51,177 nt of DNA from a virus (lineage: Duplodnaviria; Heunggongvirae; Uroviricota; Caudoviricetes): the IMG/VR virus record IMGVR_UViG_2579778634_000021; one strand, 5' to 3'. Positions within the stretch are counted from its first letter, which is position 1. Each line of letters begins with the position of its first letter. The notes under the pieces are model-generated. The model made no database searches and was not told the DNA's origin. It saw nothing but the letters and a program-made list of their open reading frames with translations. This document shows, piece after piece, positions 1,920 to 32,387 of the stretch. A program made the position numbers and the translations under genes.

Positions 1920-4900
1920 TATGCAAGCCTCACAATATAGTTAAATGCGATGTTTTTGACGGTGTTTTCCGCGTTACCCGCAGCGTTAACGGTGATGGTG
2001 TGTCCATGTGAACCAATCGCAACGGAGTGCGTATGCGCACCAATACCTACAGTATGTGCATGTGCGCCAGAACTTGCTGCAGTACCAGACAGCGAGTGGG
2101 TATGAGCACCTGCTGACTGTGTCTGAATACGTTGATAATACGATCTATAGGAAGAAGTCTCCGGCCTTACTTGATACTGTGAATCCTGGACATAAGTGAA
2201 CCCACCGCCATCATAAAATGCTAACGCAGAACCGCCGCCTCCTGGCCAACGAATACCATTACCATGAGTATGATCACCGGCAGACCCCGTAGAGCCACTC
2301 AGACTGTGCGTATGCGCCCCGGTGTTATTCGTGGATTTAGTGCCGTAATCAAACGACGATGTGGTTTTCGTCCCCAAATCCGTACTGGATGCGCTGGCGC
2401 TGTGGGTGTGCGATTTAATGCCGTCCTGTTCCTGAGACAATACGGCTCGATCACTGGCGGGCTTGCCCTTAATCGTCCAGCCACGCATATCAGGAATAAC
2501 GCCTGACGGATAAGCCACTGCAAGTTTCGGGTAAGCAGATTTGTCAAAAGTCTGCCCCTGCATCAGGGCATAACCAGACGGAACGGTATCTGATGGCCAC
2601 GGGATTGGTGCACCGACTGGGTAGCTTTCTGGTGGAAGATTTTTCGAGGTATAAACTTCTGCCCAGTCTTCCTCAAAACCATAACCGTCTCTTGAAGAAC
2701 GGTAGAACAGACCACCATTTCTGTAATGCGCCTTCATCTGCAGGGTCCGGCAACTTCCGACTCCGGTATAGAAGTTAACCAGAATATAGCTGTCGCCAGA
2801 GCGGGTGACATTGTAAGCGCCTGATTCGGCATTCCAGGGAACGGCTCCATCCGAATCCGCATAAGCCCCCGTCGAACGTCGGGCAAATGCACCAATATTT
2901 TCCGGCGTGAGGTTAATATCCGCCGAGCCATCAAACTTAACACCGTTAATTTTTGGGTCTGCCGCAAGTTTCGTCGCGGTATCGGCGTTCCCCTTCAGTG
3001 CCCCGGTGATCCCATCAGTAACAGACAACGGACCTGAAATAGTCCCTCCAGTTGTTGACAGCGCTCCAATATCTGATGGTGTAGGTTTCTGATGTGAGCT
3101 ATACATCGTATAAACAACACCATCGGTAACGCTGGAAGGCTTACTCGCTGAATATGTTAGCGAGGTATAAATAGAAACTGACGCATTTGTAGTACAATCC
3201 CAATGGATATTTACACTCGTCGCATAATTGCCAATCTCAACGTAAATATCATATATATCGCCGGATGTGTTGATCCAGGCGAAATTCGTTAATCCGACGG
3301 CTGTACGCTTCCACAAAGCTCCGGTAATCCCTTTGGGGTTTCCATTGCCTGCTCGTAGAACCAGTTCAGATATACCTGCCTGTTGAGGTGCCCCCACGTT
3401 AAATCCAGCGCCACCAATCAATGCGATGTAAACGATGGAACTCGCTTGTGGCATGGTAACCGTTGCCAGTTTGAACCACCCTGCCCCGCCAGAGAAAGAG
3501 ATCGTTACTGAATTTAAAGTGCCAATATCTTTCGGTGTTAATGTTATATCCGCAGTCAGTGCTTTCCCGTTAACTTTTCGGTTAGATGGTACCCTGCCAT
3601 TCGCATTGTCATTCGCTGCTTTAACTGCCTTCGGTGTCGCGGCAAGCGTTTCAGATGTGCTGTTGGTTGCACTGCTGAGCTGTACTATCCCCTTTTTCGT
3701 CGTGCTCGCATCCTCAAGCGCCACGGCGGATGCAATATCCTCTGCCCGTTTTGCCGCTGTCTCGGCGCGCGTTGCCGCGGATTCCGCCGTACTTTTGCTC
3801 TGAGCTGCCGCCGTCGCACTGCCAGCTGCCTCTGTCGCCTTCGTGGATGCCGTCGTGGCGCTGCCCTTTGCTGCTGACGCCTGTCTGGTCGCCTCATCTT
3901 TTGAAGCAGACGCAGATGATGCCGATGACGCCGCTGAACTGGCTGACGATGCGGCTGCCGCCTTAGAGGAAGCAGCATTGTCTGCTGAAGTCTTTGCATT
4001 TGTTTCAGAGGTTTTTGCTGCAGAAGCAGACCTCGCTGCTGCAGTGGCTTGCTCAGTGGCTTTGCCAGCCTTCGTTGTGGCTGTTGAAGCGGATGATGCG
4101 GCGCTTTCTGCCGATTTTCCGGCGGCGGTGGCACTGGCTGAGGCCTGCCCGGCACTTGTTGACGCGGCACTGGCAGATAATGCAGCCGCTGTTTTTGAAC
4201 CTGCCGCAGTTGAGGCGCTCTGTCCCGCTGCTGTTTCAGAAGACTTAGCGTTCGTCTCGGACGTTTTTGCCGCCTTCGCGGAATTTCCTGCCGCCGTTGC
4301 CGAGGAAGCTGCACTACTGGCACTTGATGATGCATTCGTTTCTGAAGATTTCGCTGCCTCTTTTGAGGCCGCCGCACCCCGTGCCGAGGTGGCAGCTTCT
4401 GACGCCTTCGTGGTCGCTGTGGATGCAGAAGTGGCTGCCGATTTTTGTGATGCTGCGGCATTCGTTTCTGACGTTTTCGCGGCACTGGCGCTGGTAGCTG
4501 CCGCGCTTTTTGATGACTCTGCAGCAGCAGCACTTTTTGATGCCTCAGAGGCTTTTGCTGATGCCGTTCCTGCGCTGGAAAAAGCCTCCTGAGCCGACGT
4601 CGCGGCCTGTCCGGCTGACGTGCTGGCTGCACGTGCTGAGCCTGCAGCATCAGTCGCATGGGTTGCCGCCTCACGGGCTGATGTGCTGGCATCGCCGGCT
4701 GACTTCTTCGCGGCTGCCGTGTTCTGTGCCACTGCGGACGCGTTACGCGCCACCTCTTCCACCATCTGCTCAAAGCGGCGCAGTGCCTCCGGTCGGACAT
4801 CATCCTCCGTCATGGCACCGAGAAAATCATTCAGCGTACCTGGTCTGGAACCTTCATAGACGGTAATGGTCCCGGCATGTGAAGGCGGAAAACCTTCAAC

Positions 4901-24716: not shown

Positions 24717-25197
24717 CGAGTAAATCCGGTAATTTATCCCCCGCCCGCGCACACTGATTTGCCCCCTTCGCAATAAGGGTTTTCAGATGGTCAAGATGGC
24801 GCGGTGTTAAATCAGGAAACTGTCGCTGCATGGATAAAGGGATGGAATCAAGCGTACTGGATAACGCCATTGCCAGCTTGCTGAGGGCAAAAATACAGAA
24901 CCCGGTGTCAATAAGTTTTCCTTTTGACACCTCATTTTTTAACTGCTGTGTAACAGCCTGTTCTGCTGTCAGTTCCCATCTGGCAATAAGCAATTTCTCC
25001 TCATAGTCGTCTTCGCTATCGCCATCAGGCACATCGTTTTTACTTCTTCTCAGATACGATATGTAAAAATCGCGCCAGGCATCCAGATCCAGTTGCCCTC
25101 GCTTATTCGATATCGGGGCACCCGGCAATTTCTGCAATCTGCGAAGCTGGCGATCGGTCAGACTTAAATGCCTGGCAACTTCAGTCTGCGTAGCCAC
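24688..25197 (-). CDS. Nu1: terminase small subunit Nu1-like
   Basis: 169-aa ORF. The N-terminal region is compatible with a helix-turn-helix. The C-terminal half matches lambda Nu1. Overlaps the A start as in lambda. Confidence 0.85.
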   Translation of the reverse strand: MATQTEVARHLSLTDRQLRRLQKLPGAPISNKRGQLDLDAWRDFYISYLRRSKNDVPDGDSEDDYEEKLLIARWELTAEQAVTQQLKNEVSKGKLIDTGFCIFALSKLAMALSSTLDSIPLSMQRQFPDLTPRHLDHLKTLIAKGANQCARAGDKLPDLLDEYIRATTE

Positions 25198-25339
25198 TCC
25201 TCACCTCGCAAAAACTCTCACCTCACAATCACAACAAAACCGGTCATGTCCGGTTTTAGTGTCTATTTTTTGCGCATGTCCGGTTCATGGAAAGCATGTT
25301 TTTATATTTTTCATATGGTTAACTTGCAGAGAAACCGGA

Positions 25340-25392
25340 CATGGATCCCGGAAAATTTTCATAAATAGTGAAAATCCGCGAGGTCGCCGCCC
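25340..25392 (-). other. cos site (cosN cohesive end GGGCGGCGACCT at 25381..25392 on the minus strand)
   Basis: Plus strand reads cccggaaaattttcataaatagtgaaaatccgcgaggtcgccgccc, a near match to the reverse complement of the lambda left end. It lies 184 bp upstream of the Nu1 start. Confidence 0.9.
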
Positions 25393-25651
25393 CGTAACGG
25401 CCCGGATCGCCGGAAAGGACCCGGCAAAATGATAATGATTGTCAGTTGCAACAAAATCCAGTTTCTTCCACCATCGCACCGGACCAGCGACCATGAGGGG
25501 ACAACGCCGCGCTCCGTTAACGCGGTAAACCCCGGTGTGTATCGTTTTTGATTATCCCCGCACACTCTCGCAGAGGAGTCTCCCTGTCGGGCTGCGGTCT
25601 CTGTTAATGCAGGAATACGGCGACAATACCGCGCATGGATAATAAGGTCGC

Positions 25652-25876
25652 TCAACACACTGGCTGTAATGCAGCGGATACCATGCGGCATTTAGCGGCA
25701 TTCATCGTACACTCAACGGTTAGCTCTTCATTCGTGGCATTCACCTGAAAGGTCCGGGAGTGTAATTGCGTACATTTACCACTGAACGAACCTTCAACAA
25801 GAACACGACCACGCTGCAAAATACGGAACGGAATTGTTCCCTGAAAAGGCTTTACGGTTACCAGTAATTTCTTCAT
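25652..25876 (-). CDS. hypothetical small protein between Rz and cos
   Basis: 74-aa ORF with MKK start; no family recognised. Confidence 0.4.
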   Translation of the reverse strand: MKKLLVTVKPFQGTIPFRILQRGRVLVEGSFSGKCTQLHSRTFQVNATNEELTVECTMNAAKCRMVSAALQPVC

Positions 25877-25899
25877 ACATCCTCCGGATAATAAAAAGA

Positions 25900-26373
25900 C
25901 TACTTAATGCACTGAGTACGGATATATTCCTGCGCCCCTTCCAGTTGCTTCTGCATCGTCATCAGCCGCTCTCTGAGGGTGAAATAATCCCGTGTAACGG
26001 TGTCTGCCAGTCGGGGGCCGGTTGCATTATCCACGCGGGCGGTGCCGGTGGCTTCACGCACGGGACCTGGACAGGTGGCGTTGATACGCAGGCGCTTACG
26101 ACCAGCGGCAACGTCAGCGCGAAAAGTTTCATTTTCAGCTCTCGCATCAGCTAATTCCCTCGAGTATTTTGCATCGAGCGCAGCAACATCGCGCTGGCGC
26201 ACCTGCATATCAGTAATGGTTGCGTTCGCCAGCTTCAGTTCACTGGCTTTGTTATCGCGCTGCGCTTTGTAGGTAATCGCGTTATCACGGTAATGGTCTG
26301 TTGCCATCCACAGCGCTCCACAGGCCACCAGCAGAATAACGATAAACGCGGAAAGCATTCGGTTTATGTTCAC
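25900..26373 (-). CDS. Rz: i-spanin Rz
   Basis: 157 aa. N-terminal transmembrane segment and a coiled coil that matches lambda Rz ([14 protein letters not shown]...). Uses a GTG start overlapping the upstream stop. Confidence 0.9.
25962..26147 (-). CDS. Rz1: o-spanin Rz1 (embedded in Rz, +1 frame)
   Basis: 61-aa ORF with a lipobox (VVSAC) and the proline-rich motif [21 protein letters not shown], as in lambda Rz1. Confidence 0.85.
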
Positions 26374-26501
26374 CCCAGCAGCCCCGACGAAGACAACATC
26401 ATCCAGGCCATGGAAAGAAAAAGAGCAACCAGCATTAGTGAAAATGAAATGCCGACAATTACACAGAGGATCTTCGCCAGCGTTATGAGTTTGTCTGACA
26501 T
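26370..26501 (-). CDS. small single-pass membrane protein (lysis-cassette ORF)
   Basis: 43-aa ORF ([29 protein letters not shown]...) after a GGGAGG ribosome-binding site. Its TGA stop overlaps the Rz GTG start. Confidence 0.45.
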
Positions 26502-26515
26502 GCTTAATCCTCCCT

Positions 26516-26698
26516 TCACGATTTCAACGCAATGACCAGTTTTGCCAGCCCATACAGCATCGGGGACACAGCAACACCGACCGCCACCCACTTAATGGCA
26601 AAAGCCAGTGCTCTGCTGATGTCATCAGTTACAGGCGCTTTCAGTTCAAGGCCGTTTTTCATAGTCAACCTCAACAGAATTCGTTTATACTTTTCCAT
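26516..26698 (-). CDS. small membrane protein (lysis-cassette ORF)
   Basis: 60-aa ORF ([11 protein letters not shown]...) after an AAGGGAG ribosome-binding site, with a hydrophobic C-terminal helix. Confidence 0.45.
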
Positions 26699-26736
26699 GT
26701 TCTCCCTTGCCTTATCCAAGGTCAGAAACACAAAAC

Positions 26737-26766
26737 CCCGCTTGCAGCCAACAAACGGGGTTTTTA
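26737..26766. terminator. intrinsic terminator hairpin downstream of the endolysin gene
   Basis: Stem ccccg/cgggg flanked by U-rich runs on both strands. Confidence 0.5.
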
Positions 26767-26854
26767 CTTTTATTCACTTAGTTTTTGTCAGTTCGCAGGA
26801 TTTCGTGTTATCCGCCCGTGTGAGCAAACCGCATTTTTCAGCAAAATATTCTGC

Positions 26855-27388
26855 TTATCTGTCAATTCCCCAGCACGCCAGCGCACTCTCCTGGTCACGA
26901 CGGGATACCTGACCGTAACAGTTATTTGAGCGAATACGGCAGTCTCTGCCACCGTCCTTAATCCACCAGCGAATTTCAGCACATGCACCTTTCCGGTCTC
27001 CGGCGTTCAGTTTCCGGTAAAACGTTGAGGTGAAGCATTTCGAAGGCCCGATGTTGTACGGACAGAATGACGCGATGCCCGCTTTCTGCGGTTCAGTCAG
27101 TGGCAATTTGATGTTTTTCTCCACCCATGCCAGCGCCTTATCACGTTCAATGGCATTAACCTGAGCGCATTTTTCCTTCGACAACTTCATGCCCGGGACG
27201 ACAGGTTTGCCATCCACCATGATGGCACCACGGCAGATGGTCCAGATCCCCGCACCATCACGGTATGCCGTGGTGTGGTTACCTTCTTTTTCGTCAAGAA
27301 ACTGGTCGAGGATTTCAGGCGCAGAAGCACCTGTGGCAATCATCGCCAGAACGGCTACCGATAAACCATAGTGGAGTTTCCTGCTCAT
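26855..27388 (-). CDS. R: endolysin, lysozyme type with an N-terminal signal-anchor-release (SAR) domain
   Basis: 177 aa. Weakly hydrophobic N-terminal segment followed by a lysozyme-like catalytic region (EGNHTTAYRDGAGIWTICRG). Confidence 0.85.
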   Translation of the reverse strand: MSRKLHYGLSVAVLAMIATGASAPEILDQFLDEKEGNHTTAYRDGAGIWTICRGAIMVDGKPVVPGMKLSKEKCAQVNAIERDKALAWVEKNIKLPLTEPQKAGIASFCPYNIGPSKCFTSTFYRKLNAGDRKGACAEIRWWIKDGGRDCRIRSNNCYGQVSRRDQESALACWGIDR

Positions 27389-27392
27389 CAGC

Positions 27393-27608
27393 TTACTCTC
27401 CCCGCGCAGCTTTGCGCCGGTCTTCTTTAATCTTGAAATACAGATTCGTCAGGTATGTCAGGAACCCCAGACACAGGCTCCCCAAAACCCCGATAGCAGC
27501 CCACTGTGACGGAGTAACCTGATCCAACCACTGTAGAAACCAGTAACCCGCACTGCCCGCAGAAGTACCATAGGCTATGCCCGTTGATATTTTTTCCATC
27601 TGATACAT
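27393..27608 (-). CDS. S: class II pinholin (phage 21 S-like)
   Basis: 71 aa, near-identical by recall to S21, with the dual-start motif MYQMEK and two transmembrane helices. Confidence 0.9.
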
Positions 27609-27684
27609 ATCCCCGCCCCGACAGACCTGTGCTACCGGAAATAAAAAAGGCCATCAGTGTTTTACTGATGGCCCTGCCCCGCCG

Positions 27685-27975
27685 TTACAGCATTGTGCCC
27701 GGTTCGGGTTGTGTGTCTGTCATATCCGTCACCGGTGACTCCGGCTGAATATCACCATTTTCCGTGGTGACATCTTCCGCCTGTGGTTCCGGAAGCAGTT
27801 CCGGGGATGGTTCCGGCTGTGCACCAAGCAATTCATCCAGAATTGAATCCACTTCTGCATCAAGACGCTCTTCCAGATTCTGGCGGAGTTTTTGTTTCAG
27901 GACGCTTCTGACTTCTTCAGAGCGAATGACTTCCTTCACTGCCTCAGCAGTGACCAGTTGTTTTATATCTGTCAT
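27685..27975 (-). CDS. hypothetical acidic protein
   Basis: 96-aa ORF from MTDIKQLV, with a Glu/Pro-rich C-terminus. Confidence 0.4.
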   Translation of the reverse strand: MTDIKQLVTAEAVKEVIRSEEVRSVLKQKLRQNLEERLDAEVDSILDELLGAQPEPSPELLPEPQAEDVTTENGDIQPESPVTDMTDTQPEPGTML

Positions 27976-28000
27976 GAGATTTTCTCGTTGAAAGGGGTTA

Positions 28001-28195
28001 TTAAGAAGGTTGTTCCGGAATGAGTGGGGCTTCTGTTTTTGCTCCGGCTGACTGAGTGGCGCTGATTTTCTCAGCGGCCCTTTTGTCAATCTGTCTGCGC
28101 CAGAAGTCGCGTACTGCCCTGTATCCACCTGAAAGAAGATACAACACACAGACCACCGTACAGAAGTACAGCATTAACTGGTTGATGAATGTCAT
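28001..28195 (-). CDS. hypothetical small membrane protein
   Basis: 64-aa ORF with one N-terminal transmembrane helix. Confidence 0.4.
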   Translation of the reverse strand: MTFINQLMLYFCTVVCVLYLLSGGYRAVRDFWRRQIDKRAAEKISATQSAGAKTEAPLIPEQPS

Positions 28196-28336
28196 GGTTT
28201 ATTACCGTTACTGTTGACAATGAGAACTGTTTTCATTTAGAAATGATTGATGTCGAAAGCATCCTTTCGTTAGATTCTCCATTGGGATTACCTCCGCCAG
28301 TCTCCATTCCTGTTGCTGGCGGTTTTTTTTCGTCTG

Positions 28337-30310
28337 TTATGCTGCTACGGCATTCACACCAACAGTAAGACTTTCAATCAGCACAGGGTAAGTTGCCGCA
28401 TTTCCGGTAATATCCGTAATTGCCAGCGCGTTGGCCTCAAAGGCTGCATTCGTCCATCTGGTCAGCGTAAACGGTTTTCCTGCTGCATTATCAAGCACCG
28501 GCGTGACGTTCAGCGAGCCACCACCCGGGAAGCGGAAAGTCAGCGTGTGCCAGTCGTGATCGAACGGACCATAACTACCAAGCCGCTGTGATGTGGTGTT
28601 TGCATGATACATCACATTGATGTTTGTTTTATCAGTCTGCAGATAGAAGGCCGCAATATAACCCTCCTCTGATTCCGCTCCCGGCCATCCACTACCGCGC
28701 CAGTAAATACCCGCAGAATATTGATTTGCAGAAGCATTGAGAGATACATCATCGGGGATTTTAAAGCGCAGCGTGATTTCACCGCCGTTATCGAACAGCT
28801 CCTTCCCCTTACCGGCATCAATTGCGTGCGATACTTTCCAGGTCTTTTTCTGTGCAAGACCATTTTCTGGTTTTTCAAGACGAAGGGCTTTTTTACCTGA
28901 ACCACTGTCACTGACCAGCGTGTTTTTGACATCTGTCAGCGTCCAGCCCTGCGAAGCCAGAGCGGCATTTTCCGCATTCACATCATAAGCCAGCACTGAC
29001 TGTATCTTTGTCGGGACAACGGCTTCAGGCTGAGTATCGCCACTCTCCTGTGCTGGTTGCGATACGCCTCCGCCTGAAGAAACCGCGGCTTTTGTCACTT
29101 TCCCGGAAACAAAATCTGCCACTCTGCCCACATGCAGAAGAATGGCTGTTGCCAGACGGTCGGAAATAATTCCGCGACGCGCCCATGAACCAAAGTGGGT
29201 TTTACGATCGGATGTTGTCCAGCTCTTCGCATCCGTTCGTCCACCGGAACCATAATACCCGATAGCCGGAATATCCGGGTCTTCTGACGGTTCATTGGTC
29301 CCGACTTTCTGACCATTGTCATCCATCATAAACGGCACAAAGAAGATATTTTTACCGGCTTTGGTTTTGTATGCGCCATAGACGGCATCGTATTGCGCTG
29401 AATACGTCTCCTTCCAGTAGTACGTCGTGTCACCACAAATCCAGGGCACCAGAGAAGGAGAAGCACCAGCGCACTGACCGGATACTCCCGCCAGGTCAGA
29501 ACGGTATTTTTCCACCATGGCATCAAACATGGCGGGCTGACTGGCGTACGCTCCCTGTTTTAAATCAAACTCGCCCTGCATCCAGACAACACAAAGCAGT
29601 ATGTTTTTGGGGTTTGCCTTCAGCGCGGCCTGAGTGCGTGTCAGCAGGTCTTTATACAACGGCTTATCAACGCCCCATCGTTCAGATTTATCCGACGCTC
29701 CTGAACTTTCACTGAACGTTCCGTCAGCACCGGCTGTAAACGCAGAGCCACCACGACAGCACGGCACTAACAAAATACCCGCATTTTCCGGCATAAAGGG
29801 CAACAGCTTTTTGGCAATATGCAATCCCTGTCCGACACACCCATACTGCTCTGCGCTGGCTTTCGGATGAGAAAAACGGCTCAAATCCTGCACATCATGC
29901 AGGCAGTGGTCCGCCGGAATGATGTCGTTATATGCACAGGCCGCACCACCCGGTGTCACCGTACTGCGACGCGCCAGCTGTTTAATACGCGGGTCCGGAC
30001 GGTCATATGTCTCCGGCAGCGGCAGGCCTTCACCATACGCCATGCCGTTTGACTGTCCGGCCAGCGCAATGACAAAGTAATATTCTGGTTCAACAACAAC
30101 AGTCCGGGTACCATCTCCCCCCGGTGAAACTACCGGAGAGGTCATATCCCCTTCAGCGACTATAGCCTGGATAAATTCAGCACCATAACCCGCGTTTGAG
30201 ATAATCGGACTACCATAGGGTTGCCAGCCTTCCTTCAGTTTTTGCGTCAGTTTTCCTGCGAGGTCTGACGGCGATGATGCCCTGACCACGTCATAGTGTT
30301 TAAATGCCAT
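28337..30310 (-). CDS. nanS: prophage sialate O-acetylesterase-like protein (NanS-p type)
   Basis: About 657 aa from MAFKHYDVV. N-terminal domain typical of prophage NanS-p, a GQSN esterase motif, and the usual position between the Q region and the lysis cassette. Confidence 0.75.
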   Translation of the reverse strand: MAFKHYDVVRASSPSDLAGKLTQKLKEGWQPYGSPIISNAGYGAEFIQAIVAEGDMTSPVVSPGGDGTRTVVVEPEYYFVIALAGQSNGMAYGEGLPLPETYDRPDPRIKQLARRSTVTPGGAACAYNDIIPADHCLHDVQDLSRFSHPKASAEQYGCVGQGLHIAKKLLPFMPENAGILLVPCCRGGSAFTAGADGTFSESSGASDKSERWGVDKPLYKDLLTRTQAALKANPKNILLCVVWMQGEFDLKQGAYASQPAMFDAMVEKYRSDLAGVSGQCAGASPSLVPWICGDTTYYWKETYSAQYDAVYGAYKTKAGKNIFFVPFMMDDNGQKVGTNEPSEDPDIPAIGYYGSGGRTDAKSWTTSDRKTHFGSWARRGIISDRLATAILLHVGRVADFVSGKVTKAAVSSGGGVSQPAQESGDTQPEAVVPTKIQSVLAYDVNAENAALASQGWTLTDVKNTLVSDSGSGKKALRLEKPENGLAQKKTWKVSHAIDAGKGKELFDNGGEITLRFKIPDDVSLNASANQYSAGIYWRGSGWPGAESEEGYIAAFYLQTDKTNINVMYHANTTSQRLGSYGPFDHDWHTLTFRFPGGGSLNVTPVLDNAAGKPFTLTRWTNAAFEANALAITDITGNAATYPVLIESLTVGVNAVAA

Positions 30311-30513
30311 TATTCCTCCCGGCAGGGATAGTGTATGCAATCAAGATAAGGTGCGGGCTGACGTCAGTCATGGACAAGGGTTCAGAAACAGGAGGATGAC
30401 TACAGCCCGCAATACGAAAAAGACCATACAGTTGCGCAGAGTGATTACTGTCGGGTATTATTCGCCAGCTGAAAATTGATCACTTCACGTTTTGTTGTTT
30501 ATTCCTTGCCACC

Positions 30514-31760: not shown

Positions 31761-32387
31761 TCATCTAGCAATCACTAGAAGTTCTTTCTCCAATTCTCGC
31801 TTCATTGCATAAAACATTTCTGAATCAAGGACCCTCTCGCACCACACGACCCGCCTCCGGCAATACTGAATATCAACTCCTGTTATCTGAGAAATCATCC
31901 TGGCGATATCTTGCGTGCTGTCGCGATTGCAATATCGCCTAATAGCTACATCACGGACAGGGCTTTCACGATGAAAGGTCTCAACCATCACACGTTCAAC
32001 GAAAGCAGCATCATCGGATTCTTTGGCGAGAGCAATGATATTACCTGCCGATGACTGAGGGATGACCAGTTCTCGGGCTTTCTGATGGAGTTCATCTCCA
32101 CGTAGTCCGTCTTCTTCATACAGACGCATGACAACAGACTCAATCTGCTTAGCTTTGTCATCGCTCCACTGACTGCGAATCATCAGTCGCCCAATAACGT
32201 TAATTGCACCACAAGGAGAATCATCACCAGCGTTAACATTTCCCCATACCTGTAGCATGTAGTGAACCCATGCTTTCTGACGAGAGTTAATGATTTTCTT
32301 CGGATGCCTCCATATGCGGCGGAAATGAGCATCATTAATAAAGTTAACCATGCCGAATACTGGGGTTAGCCGCATCACAGCCCCCAT
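31761..32387 (-). CDS. putative late-gene regulator in the Q position (Q-like by position only)
   Basis: 208-aa ORF immediately upstream of the terminator-rich region and the late genes. I could not match it to lambda Q. Confidence 0.4.
   Translation of the reverse strand: MGAVMRLTPVFGMVNFINDAHFRRIWRHPKKIINSRQKAWVHYMLQVWGNVNAGDDSPCGAINVIGRLMIRSQWSDDKAKQIESVVMRLYEEDGLRGDELHQKARELVIPQSSAGNIIALAKESDDAAFVERVMVETFHRESPVRDVAIRRYCNRDSTQDIARMISQITGVDIQYCRRRVVWCERVLDSEMFYAMKRELEKELLVIAR

Follow-up and report, generated by a model that had tools for sequence, protein, structure and literature searches.

Terminator hairpin and two tiny inner-membrane protein genes in the endolysin-spanin junction of a lambdoid prophage

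In phage lambda and phage 21 the lysis genes are contiguous, and in lambda the endolysin gene R overlaps the i-spanin gene Rz. The stretch of viral DNA analyzed here, an E. coli prophage in the 51,177-nt IMG/VR record IMGVR_UViG_2579778634_000021 (referred to below as the window), contains a three-part insert in the endolysin-spanin junction, composed of a terminator hairpin and two tiny inner-membrane protein genes, ORF1 and ORF2. Coordinates are those of the window, and the lysis genes are all encoded on its minus strand (Table 1), in the order phage 21 S-type (S21-type) holin, endolysin, spacer, hairpin, ORF1, ORF2 and Rz/Rz1. An earlier reading of this DNA made from the letters alone (the sequence-only reading) had placed a stable hairpin terminator behind the endolysin gene, followed by two small ORFs of 60 and 43 codons, each with a strong ribosome-binding site and one membrane helix. 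The hairpin is present just there on the minus strand, both ORFs were found together with their ribosome-binding sites, and topology prediction, which that reading had proposed as a check, gives a single hydrophobic helix in each ORF.

Table 1. Coordinates of the junction insert and of the surrounding lysis and late-control genes in the window
Feature	Coordinates	Strand	Match or remark
ORF1, 60 aa, tail-anchored single-pass membrane protein (predicted)	26516..26698	-	phrog_1115, E 1.4e-42
ORF2, 43 aa, single-pass membrane peptide (predicted)	26370..26501	-	phrog_4906, E 2.1e-23
Intrinsic-terminator hairpin with flanking tracts	26720..26775	both strands	stem-loop 26764..26732
Conserved noncoding spacer, ~90 nt, from the R stop codon to the hairpin	26765..26854	-	
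Endolysin R, lysozyme family	26855..27388	-	PF00959, E 2e-24
Rz (i-spanin)	25900..26373	-	PF03245, E 1.8e-49
Rz1 (o-spanin lipoprotein), embedded in Rz	25962..26147	-	PF06085, E 4.4e-20
Class II (phage 21 S-type) holin, 71 aa	27393..27608	-	PF04971, E 5.3e-35
Q-like late antiterminator gene	31761..32387	-	phrog_753 'anti-termination protein Q-like', E 3.5e-68

Judged by its substitution pattern, ORF1 is a real gene under strong purifying selection. Across 15 distinct E. coli alleles the dN/dS is 0.087 and 14 of the 18 variable sites fall at codon position 3; if either of the remaining frames were the coding one, 16-17 of these changes would affect the protein sequence. A Shine-Dalgarno (SD) sequence, AAGGGAG, is positioned at 26708-26702. 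The gene is present in 1560 of 5426 complete E. coli genomes, is called by PGAP (WP_021566721.1, 'hypothetical protein') and matches phrog_1115, a family listed as of unknown function, along residues 1-60. Conservation of the pair in related phages had been left by the sequence-only reading as a point to check, and it holds, both in the purifying selection on ORF1 and in the recurrence of ORF1 and ORF2 at R-Rz junctions. Two opposite-strand ORFs (26293-26535 and 26532-26912, plus strand) were considered as genes and rejected, the substitution pattern fitting only the minus-strand ORF1 frame.

The AlphaFold model of ORF1 consists of a helix at residues 2-14, a loop, and a long helix at residues 23-59 (pLDDT ~90). 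The N-terminal helix is basic, the loop has the conserved sequence M13-K-N-G-L-E-x-x-A-P (MKNGLExDAP), and there is an acidic juxtamembrane patch, T-D-D/E-I-S. The membrane segment is weakly hydrophobic, its best 19-residue stretch having a Kyte-Doolittle mean of 1.88 (pinholin, 1.63; Rz anchor, 2.46); it contains two lysines, and only about three residues extend beyond the helix to the C-terminal end ...VIALKS. By the positive-inside rule, the predicted protein should be tail-anchored with an N-in/C-out orientation and a cytoplasmic head of about 28 aa. A candidate internal start codon, the nearly invariant M13 (26662-26660), is preceded 6 nt upstream by GAGG (26672-26669), which persists in members with a different peptide at this place (LRLT vs VEAN), and many gene callers start ORF1 homologues at M13. 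It is possible from these sequence features that two products of 60 and 48 aa are made, from M1 and M13; the 12-codon spacing is unlike that of known dual starts. The rare codons CGA (R6, 26683-26681) and AGG (R10, 26671-26669) are kept in divergent members sharing the same type of N-terminal extension while neighboring synonymous sites vary, and it is the AGG codon that gives rise to the GAGG ahead of M13.

When 1.8 billion representative proteins were searched exhaustively with a profile, only 20 ORF1 relatives were detected, all of them small hypothetical proteins. The divergent relatives share the same plan and several end in RWW. No relative was found in a scan of GTDB species-representative genomes. 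The ORF1-type families are PHROG 1115, 4493 and 3246, and since these, together with PHROG 4906 and 6632, are all described as of unknown function, membership adds no mechanism.

The second gene, ORF2, is preceded by the SD sequence GGAGG at 26513-26509, 7 nt before its ATG. It encodes a 10-residue N-terminus, a strongly hydrophobic helix at residues 11-29 (Kyte-Doolittle 2.89) and eight C-terminal residues, ending in ...SSSGLLG. It was found in 1659 of the 5426 complete E. coli genomes, is called by PGAP (WP_001280932.1, 'hypothetical protein'), and matches phrog_4906, likewise of 'unknown function', over residues 1-43. The homologue in prophage Sp5 of strain Sakai is ECs_5707, and the homologue in the 933W region of strain EDL933, EDL933_1392, is listed there only as one of the annotated proteins that served as controls, with a predicted inner-membrane location (PMC4765031 supplement).

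The sequence-only reading had described the TGA stop of ORF2 as fused to the GTG start of Rz. The overlap of the TGA (26372-26370) with an in-frame GTG (26373-26371) is indeed there; that the GTG is the Rz start is less certain, as PGAP prefers the ATG at 26358, 12 nt after the ORF2 stop codon. The codon at which relatives usually start Rz, with 'MNR', is ATA in the window, which leaves two candidate starts, the GTG at 26373 and the ATG at 26358, the latter five codons after the GTG and three after the ATA. Neither candidate start in the window is preceded by a good SD sequence. Across all junction types the distance from the stop codon of the last small ORF to the Rz start is 0-15 nt, whether as a GTGA overlap, as an ATGA overlap after a frameshifted ORF2, as TGAnATG after RWW peptides, or as a gap of 7-12 nt elsewhere. 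Given this spacing and the lack of a good SD sequence at Rz, a translational hand-over from ORF2 to Rz is plausible.

It could be that ORF2, as opposed to ORF1, is a mere leader frame that brings ribosomes to Rz after the separation of R from Rz, an explanation that we consider quite improbable and that is compatible with either a lysis or a cargo function for the insert. It would agree with the absence of a good SD sequence at Rz and with the ORF2 dN/dS of 0.46, with codon-position changes of 15/8/15 that show little or no periodicity. It would agree too with the frameshifted allele present in 8 of 80 viral-contig loci (L024, L025, L028, L030, L031, L034, L037 and L038), in which the last 16 residues are scrambled and the frame is still 43 codons long, with its TGA overlapping the Rz ATG. 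However, the length of ORF2 is constant at 43 codons in alleles down to ~72% identity, its N-terminal two thirds are nearly invariant, and its variable C-terminal third is hydrophobic in all alleles. Two variants, P0196 and P0199, restore the downstream frame, and in Shiga toxin (Stx) phages ORF2 is conserved directly before Rz with ~80% identity, none of which is in favor of a frame that serves only as a leader.

The hairpin upstream of ORF1 has a 14-bp GC-rich stem and a folding energy of -21.6 kcal/mol (z -5.5 vs shuffles). It is preceded by an A-tract and followed by UUUUGUGUUUCU, and with an A-tract on one side and a T-tract on the other it is terminator-like on both strands. In every context the ORF1-type gene is preceded, at 30-60 nt, by a stable hairpin, with 11 examples from six or more contexts (-19 to -30 kcal/mol, z -3.6 to -6.2). 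The stem sequences differ and the structure is kept, with the A-tract on the 5' side and the T-tract on the 3' side. The recurrence of a hairpin before ORF1-type genes indicates that the mobile unit is a hairpin together with a small membrane gene. No Rfam family reached its gathering score in a scan, the best being a plus-strand match at 26700-26788 to the gammaproteobacterial rimP leader, which at 27.5 bits (E 0.21) stays below the gathering score of 47; this match runs antisense across the hairpin and most likely reflects only terminator similarity.

A scan of 25000-29000 for consensus sigma-70-like promoters gave no sense-strand site. Likewise, for 12 of 14 family members the 140 nt upstream gave no sense promoter, and in the remaining two the matches were only at threshold level (8/12). 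A Q-like antiterminator gene is encoded on the same strand ~4 kb upstream of the lysis genes, with O, P, NinB and RusA further upstream and the terminase genes Nu1 and A downstream, which identifies the region as the late operon of a lambdoid prophage. Based on the lack of a sense promoter, the upstream terminator and the upstream Q-like antiterminator, ORF1 and ORF2 are most likely expressed exclusively late, when transcription reads through the hairpin.

A single promoter-like site was found in the 4 kb; it is on the plus strand (TAGTCA-18-TATACT, 26662-26691), inside ORF1 codons 3-12, and points toward the ORF1 start and the hairpin. This raises a different explanation, in which the locus is a type I toxin-antitoxin-like module with ORF1 as a small membrane toxin. 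An antisense RNA of ~75 nt, transcribed from the promoter in codons 3-12 and ending at the hairpin, would mask the ORF1 ribosome-binding site until overwhelmed by late transcription. Of 14 family members, 13 have a comparable site at the corresponding position, and in every context the hairpin has a T-tract on its antisense side. The E. coli and Salmonella alleles do not differ at any of the 48 nt of codons 3-18, in comparison to differences at ~30 of 126 nt (23-29%) in the rest of ORF1 (p ~1e-5). There is also a precedent in the prophage type I system hokW-sokW of Sakai Sp5, whose small hydrophobic inner-membrane peptide is made on induction and aids lysis, raising phage release (PMC8621323). 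However, when the peptide was recoded with synonymous codons, antisense promoter scores at least as good arose in 17-68% of the recodings in eight of nine cases (the lowest, 5%, was in locus L101), and consequently the promoter-like motif is no evidence beyond the coding constraint imposed by the K-Y-K-R...T-M-K peptide. More distant family members vary synonymously in the codon 3-18 block, so its invariance is better read as a recombination (mosaic) joint. Although a hydrophobic peptide is present, no promoter for a toxin mRNA was found in the 4-kb scan or upstream of the family members, no Rfam family was at threshold, and no similarity to Hok, Ldr, Ibs or like families was found with Pfam and NCBIfam. 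The hokW gene itself is transcribed as a separate mRNA, an antisense RNA has been demonstrated for it, and it is not part of the lysis cassette; for ORF1 neither a toxin promoter nor similarity to Hok was found. The antisense explanation looked promising from the recurrence of the promoter-like site, but in view of the recoding result we regard it as a minor rival and as very improbable.

The R-Rz gap is a variable slot. Among 97 loci with both genes, ORF1-ORF2, the arrangement of the window, is found in 71, ORF1 alone in 10, and ORF1 with a short RWW-type relative in eight; among the other combinations is one in which a truncated ORF1 and an RWW-type ORF come after ORF1-ORF2. In E. coli, the ORF1 family is present between the endolysin and Rz in all 80 IMG/VR loci. 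PhiR12_1 (PV340549), a plaque-forming relative, matches a 521-nt query spanning ORF1-ORF2 with 99.8% identity, and in EDL933 (CP124740) the counterpart of window positions 26300-26900 is at 4681800-4682800. Across loci ORF1 is 97-100% identical, and the flanking R is 86-98% and Rz 58-100% identical; the steadiness of ORF1 while R and Rz vary indicates that it recombines independently of its neighbors. In Stx phages the gap holds an antirepressor gene, a WKFLL...-type peptide (PHROG 6632) and ORF2, and in CP-1639 a hairpin is followed by a PHROG 6632 peptide whose stop codon abuts Rz. No empty junction was encountered, R being directly next to Rz in none of 295 phage records with this endolysin type.

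The PHROG 6632 peptides have the motif W-[KR]-F-[LI]-L-x-W-L and often end in RWW. They are encoded directly before Rz, ORF2 or an endolysin in both enteric and non-enteric phages (L003 2705-2803, L002 2418-2507, L088 2925-2999, L098 3305-3403). A truncated ORF1 copy corresponding to residues 23-60 is found directly after ORF2 in L074 (2426-2548), L081 and L088 (3151-3273), and starts at a GTG overlapping the ORF2 TGA, which is the same GTGA joint as that of ORF2 and Rz in the window. Gene callers fuse the truncated ORF1 with out-of-frame ORF2 into 'proteins' of 83-90 aa (P0094, P0098; PHROG 3246).

Salmonella homologues of ORF1, with 77-83% identity, are likewise encoded between the endolysin and Rz. 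Their cassettes comprise HP1-type or S21-type holins with a lysozyme, and lambda-S-type holins with a GH19 endolysin. In locus L101 an HP1-type holin and lysozyme are followed by an ORF1-type gene, a DNA methylase gene and Rz, and in L104 the ORF1-type gene is situated between a GH19/peptidoglycan-binding endolysin gene and the gene of a 59-aa lipoprotein. Salmonella-type alleles (L089-L096 and L103) have 25 extra nucleotides, ~25 nt before the ORF1 homologue, that give rise to a mini-ORF of eight codons, MCREVCSL, whose TGA overlaps the GTG start of the homologue, with a second SD sequence, AGGGAGG, inside a small hairpin. From its sequence, this overlap would be another sign of coupled translation in the module. 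A small hydrophobic ORF, VYMAAMICFVAAFMLACDGRSGWGWFLLVGLIVM, overlaps the 3' end of a SAR (signal-anchor-release) endolysin gene upstream of the ORF1-type gene in L101 (2688-2804) and L103 (2672-2776).

A distant context is that of locus L098 (JGI metagenome 3300007140), from a phage whose head genes resemble those of Pseudomonas and Ralstonia phages and cyanophages. Its major capsid gene is followed by five small membrane ORFs in an array (2430-3405; 51, 52, 59, 51 and 32 aa), consisting of two ORF1-type genes, two other small transmembrane genes and one PHROG 6632-type peptide gene. A near-identical GC hairpin, AAACGCCCCGGCAG...CTGCCGGGGCGTT, precedes three of the five ORFs, and the array ends 3 nt before a lysozyme gene, i.e., at the usual position of the holin. 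Overall, the unit of a hairpin and an ORF1-type gene is mostly a neighbor of endolysin or spanin genes, a placement of the family that recurs in at least seven different cassette backgrounds, and nine of 11 endolysins neighboring ORF1-family genes have a SAR-like N-terminus.

The variability of the slot is relevant to the main rival explanation, that the insert is unrelated late-operon cargo, a selfish or moron-like unit of a hairpin and a small membrane gene residing at permissive junctions. The cargo product would act elsewhere, in superinfection exclusion, as a block of DNA entry, or on a host membrane protein, and the endolysin-Rz junction would merely be the most tolerant site. Morons, such as lambda bor and lom and those of HK97, are extra genes between late genes, flanked by terminators and variable between similar phages; classic morons have their own promoter upstream and a terminator downstream, and are expressed in the lysogen. 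As would be expected of a moron-like insertion between late genes, the gap content varies between related cassettes and other junctions are used, although no empty R-Rz site was found among the 295 phage records. The same family is found after tail-fibre/assembly genes (L084-86, L097), between the tail tube and chaperone genes (L102) and at a prophage end (L086). ORF1 is nearly identical in spite of its varying neighbors, related R-Rz gaps hold an antirepressor gene, a DNA methylase gene or other small ORFs, and tandem paralogues and truncated copies exist. Unlike in classic morons, the terminator in the window is upstream of the insert, no terminator-and-promoter layout of the classic kind is present, and no promoter of its own was detected, which together make expression in the lysogen unlikely. 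None of ORF1, ORF2 and the Salmonella paralogue matched a PADLOC defence profile at E<=1, and cassettes of unrelated types, as well as a distant phage, show the same association with endolysin or spanin genes. We regard the cargo explanation as rather unlikely.

Apart from the PHROG matches, searches for known families gave nothing significant for either protein. With Pfam there was no ORF1 match at E<=1, and ORF2 gave only a sub-threshold match to DUF3930 (13.2 bits, cutoff 25). NCBIfam gave no match for ORF1 or ORF2, and profile searches of PDB sequences gave no match at E<=1. A highly charged hydrophilic C-terminal tail, as found in holins, is absent from both ORF1 and ORF2, which have one helix each. 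Neither resembles a spanin, as only ~3 (ORF1) and ~8 (ORF2) residues extend beyond the helix and there is no lipobox. The suggestion of the sequence-only reading that the peptides could be spanin-modulating has against it that neither ORF has a periplasmic domain able to act on the periplasmic part of the spanin.

Among characterized lysis proteins, a close parallel in layout is the Mu releasin gp25, a single-helix inner-membrane tether with essentially no periplasmic part that acts from the cytoplasmic face. An acidic cytoplasmic region of gp25 faces the basic N-terminus of the endolysin, and its gene is a few genes downstream of that of the SAR endolysin (PMC9239132). The endolysin in the window starts with MSRKLHYGLSVAVLAMIATGASAP, a basic start followed by a weakly hydrophobic SAR-like segment, and SAR endolysins have been predicted among its relatives (PMC8136144). 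ORF1, as a predicted membrane-tethered protein encoded by the first gene after this SAR-like endolysin (N-terminus MSRK...), would have the same general releasin-type layout as gp25 (DUF2730). There is, however, no sequence relationship, ORF1 having no Pfam match at E<=1. The gp25 protein is 99 aa long, is anchored at its N-terminus (N-out, C-in) and has a cytoplasmic domain of 73 aa, in contrast to the 60 aa, C-terminal anchor and ~28-aa head of ORF1. Furthermore, Mu is without a holin and the cassette in the window has one, and some relatives of ORF1 are encoded beside a soluble endolysin or at a distance from lysis genes.

The lysA gene of P2, situated between the endolysin gene and the Rz-like lysB, occupies the same slot as the insert. 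In P1, LydD, LydC and LydB are holin-like or antiholin proteins, small membrane proteins that come in addition to the main holin, are encoded beside the endolysin, are nonessential and modulate lysis (PMC9025707). ORF1 and ORF2 differ from the P1 Lyd proteins and P2 LysA in having one helix each and no charged tail, and have no sequence similarity to them. In both sequence and architecture, then, ORF1 and ORF2 fall outside what defines gp25, the Lyd proteins, LysA and HokW, and they are at most a variant of accessory lysis-cassette membrane proteins.

The explanation that we tentatively favor, with somewhat less than even confidence, is that ORF1 and ORF2 serve the lysis cassette as nonessential accessory membrane proteins and that ORF2 hands ribosomes on to Rz. 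In the lysogen the hairpin would silence ORF1, ORF2 and Rz/Rz1. After induction, Q-modified RNA polymerase would read through the hairpin, so that ORF1 and ORF2 would be made only together with the holin, endolysin and spanins. ORF1 would insert with its N-terminus in and C-terminus out, and its head of ~28 aa at the cytoplasmic face may tune the membrane step of lysis. The most plausible target would be the step at which the SAR-type endolysin is released or the pinholin is triggered, i.e., a releasin- or antiholin-like function. Translation of ORF2, ending at the Rz start, would restore the ribosome hand-over that is provided by the R/Rz overlap in lambda, and the ORF2 helix may also contact the membrane anchor of Rz. 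The pair would be nonessential, and the unit of a hairpin and an ORF1-type gene would move between phages by recombination.

Several observations weigh against an accessory lysis function. Neither ORF1 nor ORF2 matches a holin, antiholin, releasin (DUF2730) or defence family. Some ORF1-family members reside at the tail and prophage-end junctions described above, at a distance from lysis genes. ORF1 does not covary with R or Rz and has unrelated holin and endolysin partners, including a soluble GH19 endolysin (L090), which argues against a specific protein partner. The predicted cytoplasmic head of ORF1 is short, at ~28 aa only. ORF2 is weakly constrained compared with ORF1, and its C-terminus is scrambled in the frameshifted alleles. 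In the literature, no paper naming these peptides or their sequences and no functional study was found; a survey of Stx-phage lysis cassettes makes no mention of the small ORFs, and the supplements of a ribosome-profiling study of small genes in Sakai have no entry at ECs1214/1215.

The sequence-only reading had offered two possibilities, namely that the peptides are accessory regulators of lysis or that they are unrelated membrane-peptide cargo subject to late control, and the pair fits that broad description, being genuine small membrane-protein genes with no promoter of their own, with a Q-like gene upstream and with cargo-like mobility. For the regulator half of the proposal the evidence is divided between the recurrence beside endolysin and spanin genes and the constant place of ORF2 directly before Rz, which speak for it, and the missing holin or antiholin family match and charged C-terminus, which do not. 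Nothing in the evidence forces a surprising mechanism. A bolder version would make ORF1 a new class of lysis regulator, a tail-anchored 'mini-releasin/antiholin', perhaps in M1 and M13 forms, whose ~28-aa cytoplasmic head would govern SAR-endolysin release or pinholin triggering, in a self-contained, terminator-gated cassette open to antiterminated late transcription only, in which ORF2 and the PHROG 6632 RWW peptides tune endolysin and spanin steps; this is clearly unlikely at present.

The timing of lysis sets phage burst size, and in Stx phages it also sets the moment of toxin release. Lysis of the lambda type is held to be solved, with a holin, an endolysin and spanins, and yet ~30% of complete E. 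coli genomes, including those of O157:H7 strains EDL933 and Sakai, contain one or two additional conserved genes for membrane peptides within this cassette. The ORF1 and ORF2 sequences are already catalogued as hypothetical proteins and in PHROGs; it is the modular structure of a terminator and a tiny membrane gene that was previously unremarked. If SAR-endolysin release, pinholin triggering or spanin expression were modulated by these peptides, they would represent a new layer of control and a second, unrelated example of the releasin principle, and would provide a simple genetic handle on the timing of lysis and toxin release in enterohemorrhagic E. coli prophages. If instead the genes are cargo, they would be an example of promoterless genes riding antiterminated late transcription.

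Other features of the region lie outside the insert itself. The spacer between R and the hairpin aligns with Salmonella loci that have other endolysins, where its versions contain a GGCGGAT...ATCCGCC inverted repeat, and the same spacer is kept after R in Stx phages without the hairpin and ORF1. Upstream of the holin (27685-30340, minus strand) are genes encoding a DUF826 protein and a 667-aa SASA/DUF6645 (NanS-p-like) sialate O-acetylesterase; in Salmonella locus L086 an esterase of the same type is followed directly by two ORF1-family genes. After Rz, a 74-aa ORF (25652-25876, minus strand), called a hypothetical protein by PGAP, matches only positions 100-172 of the 291-position phrog_2571 and is probably the remnant of a longer gene.

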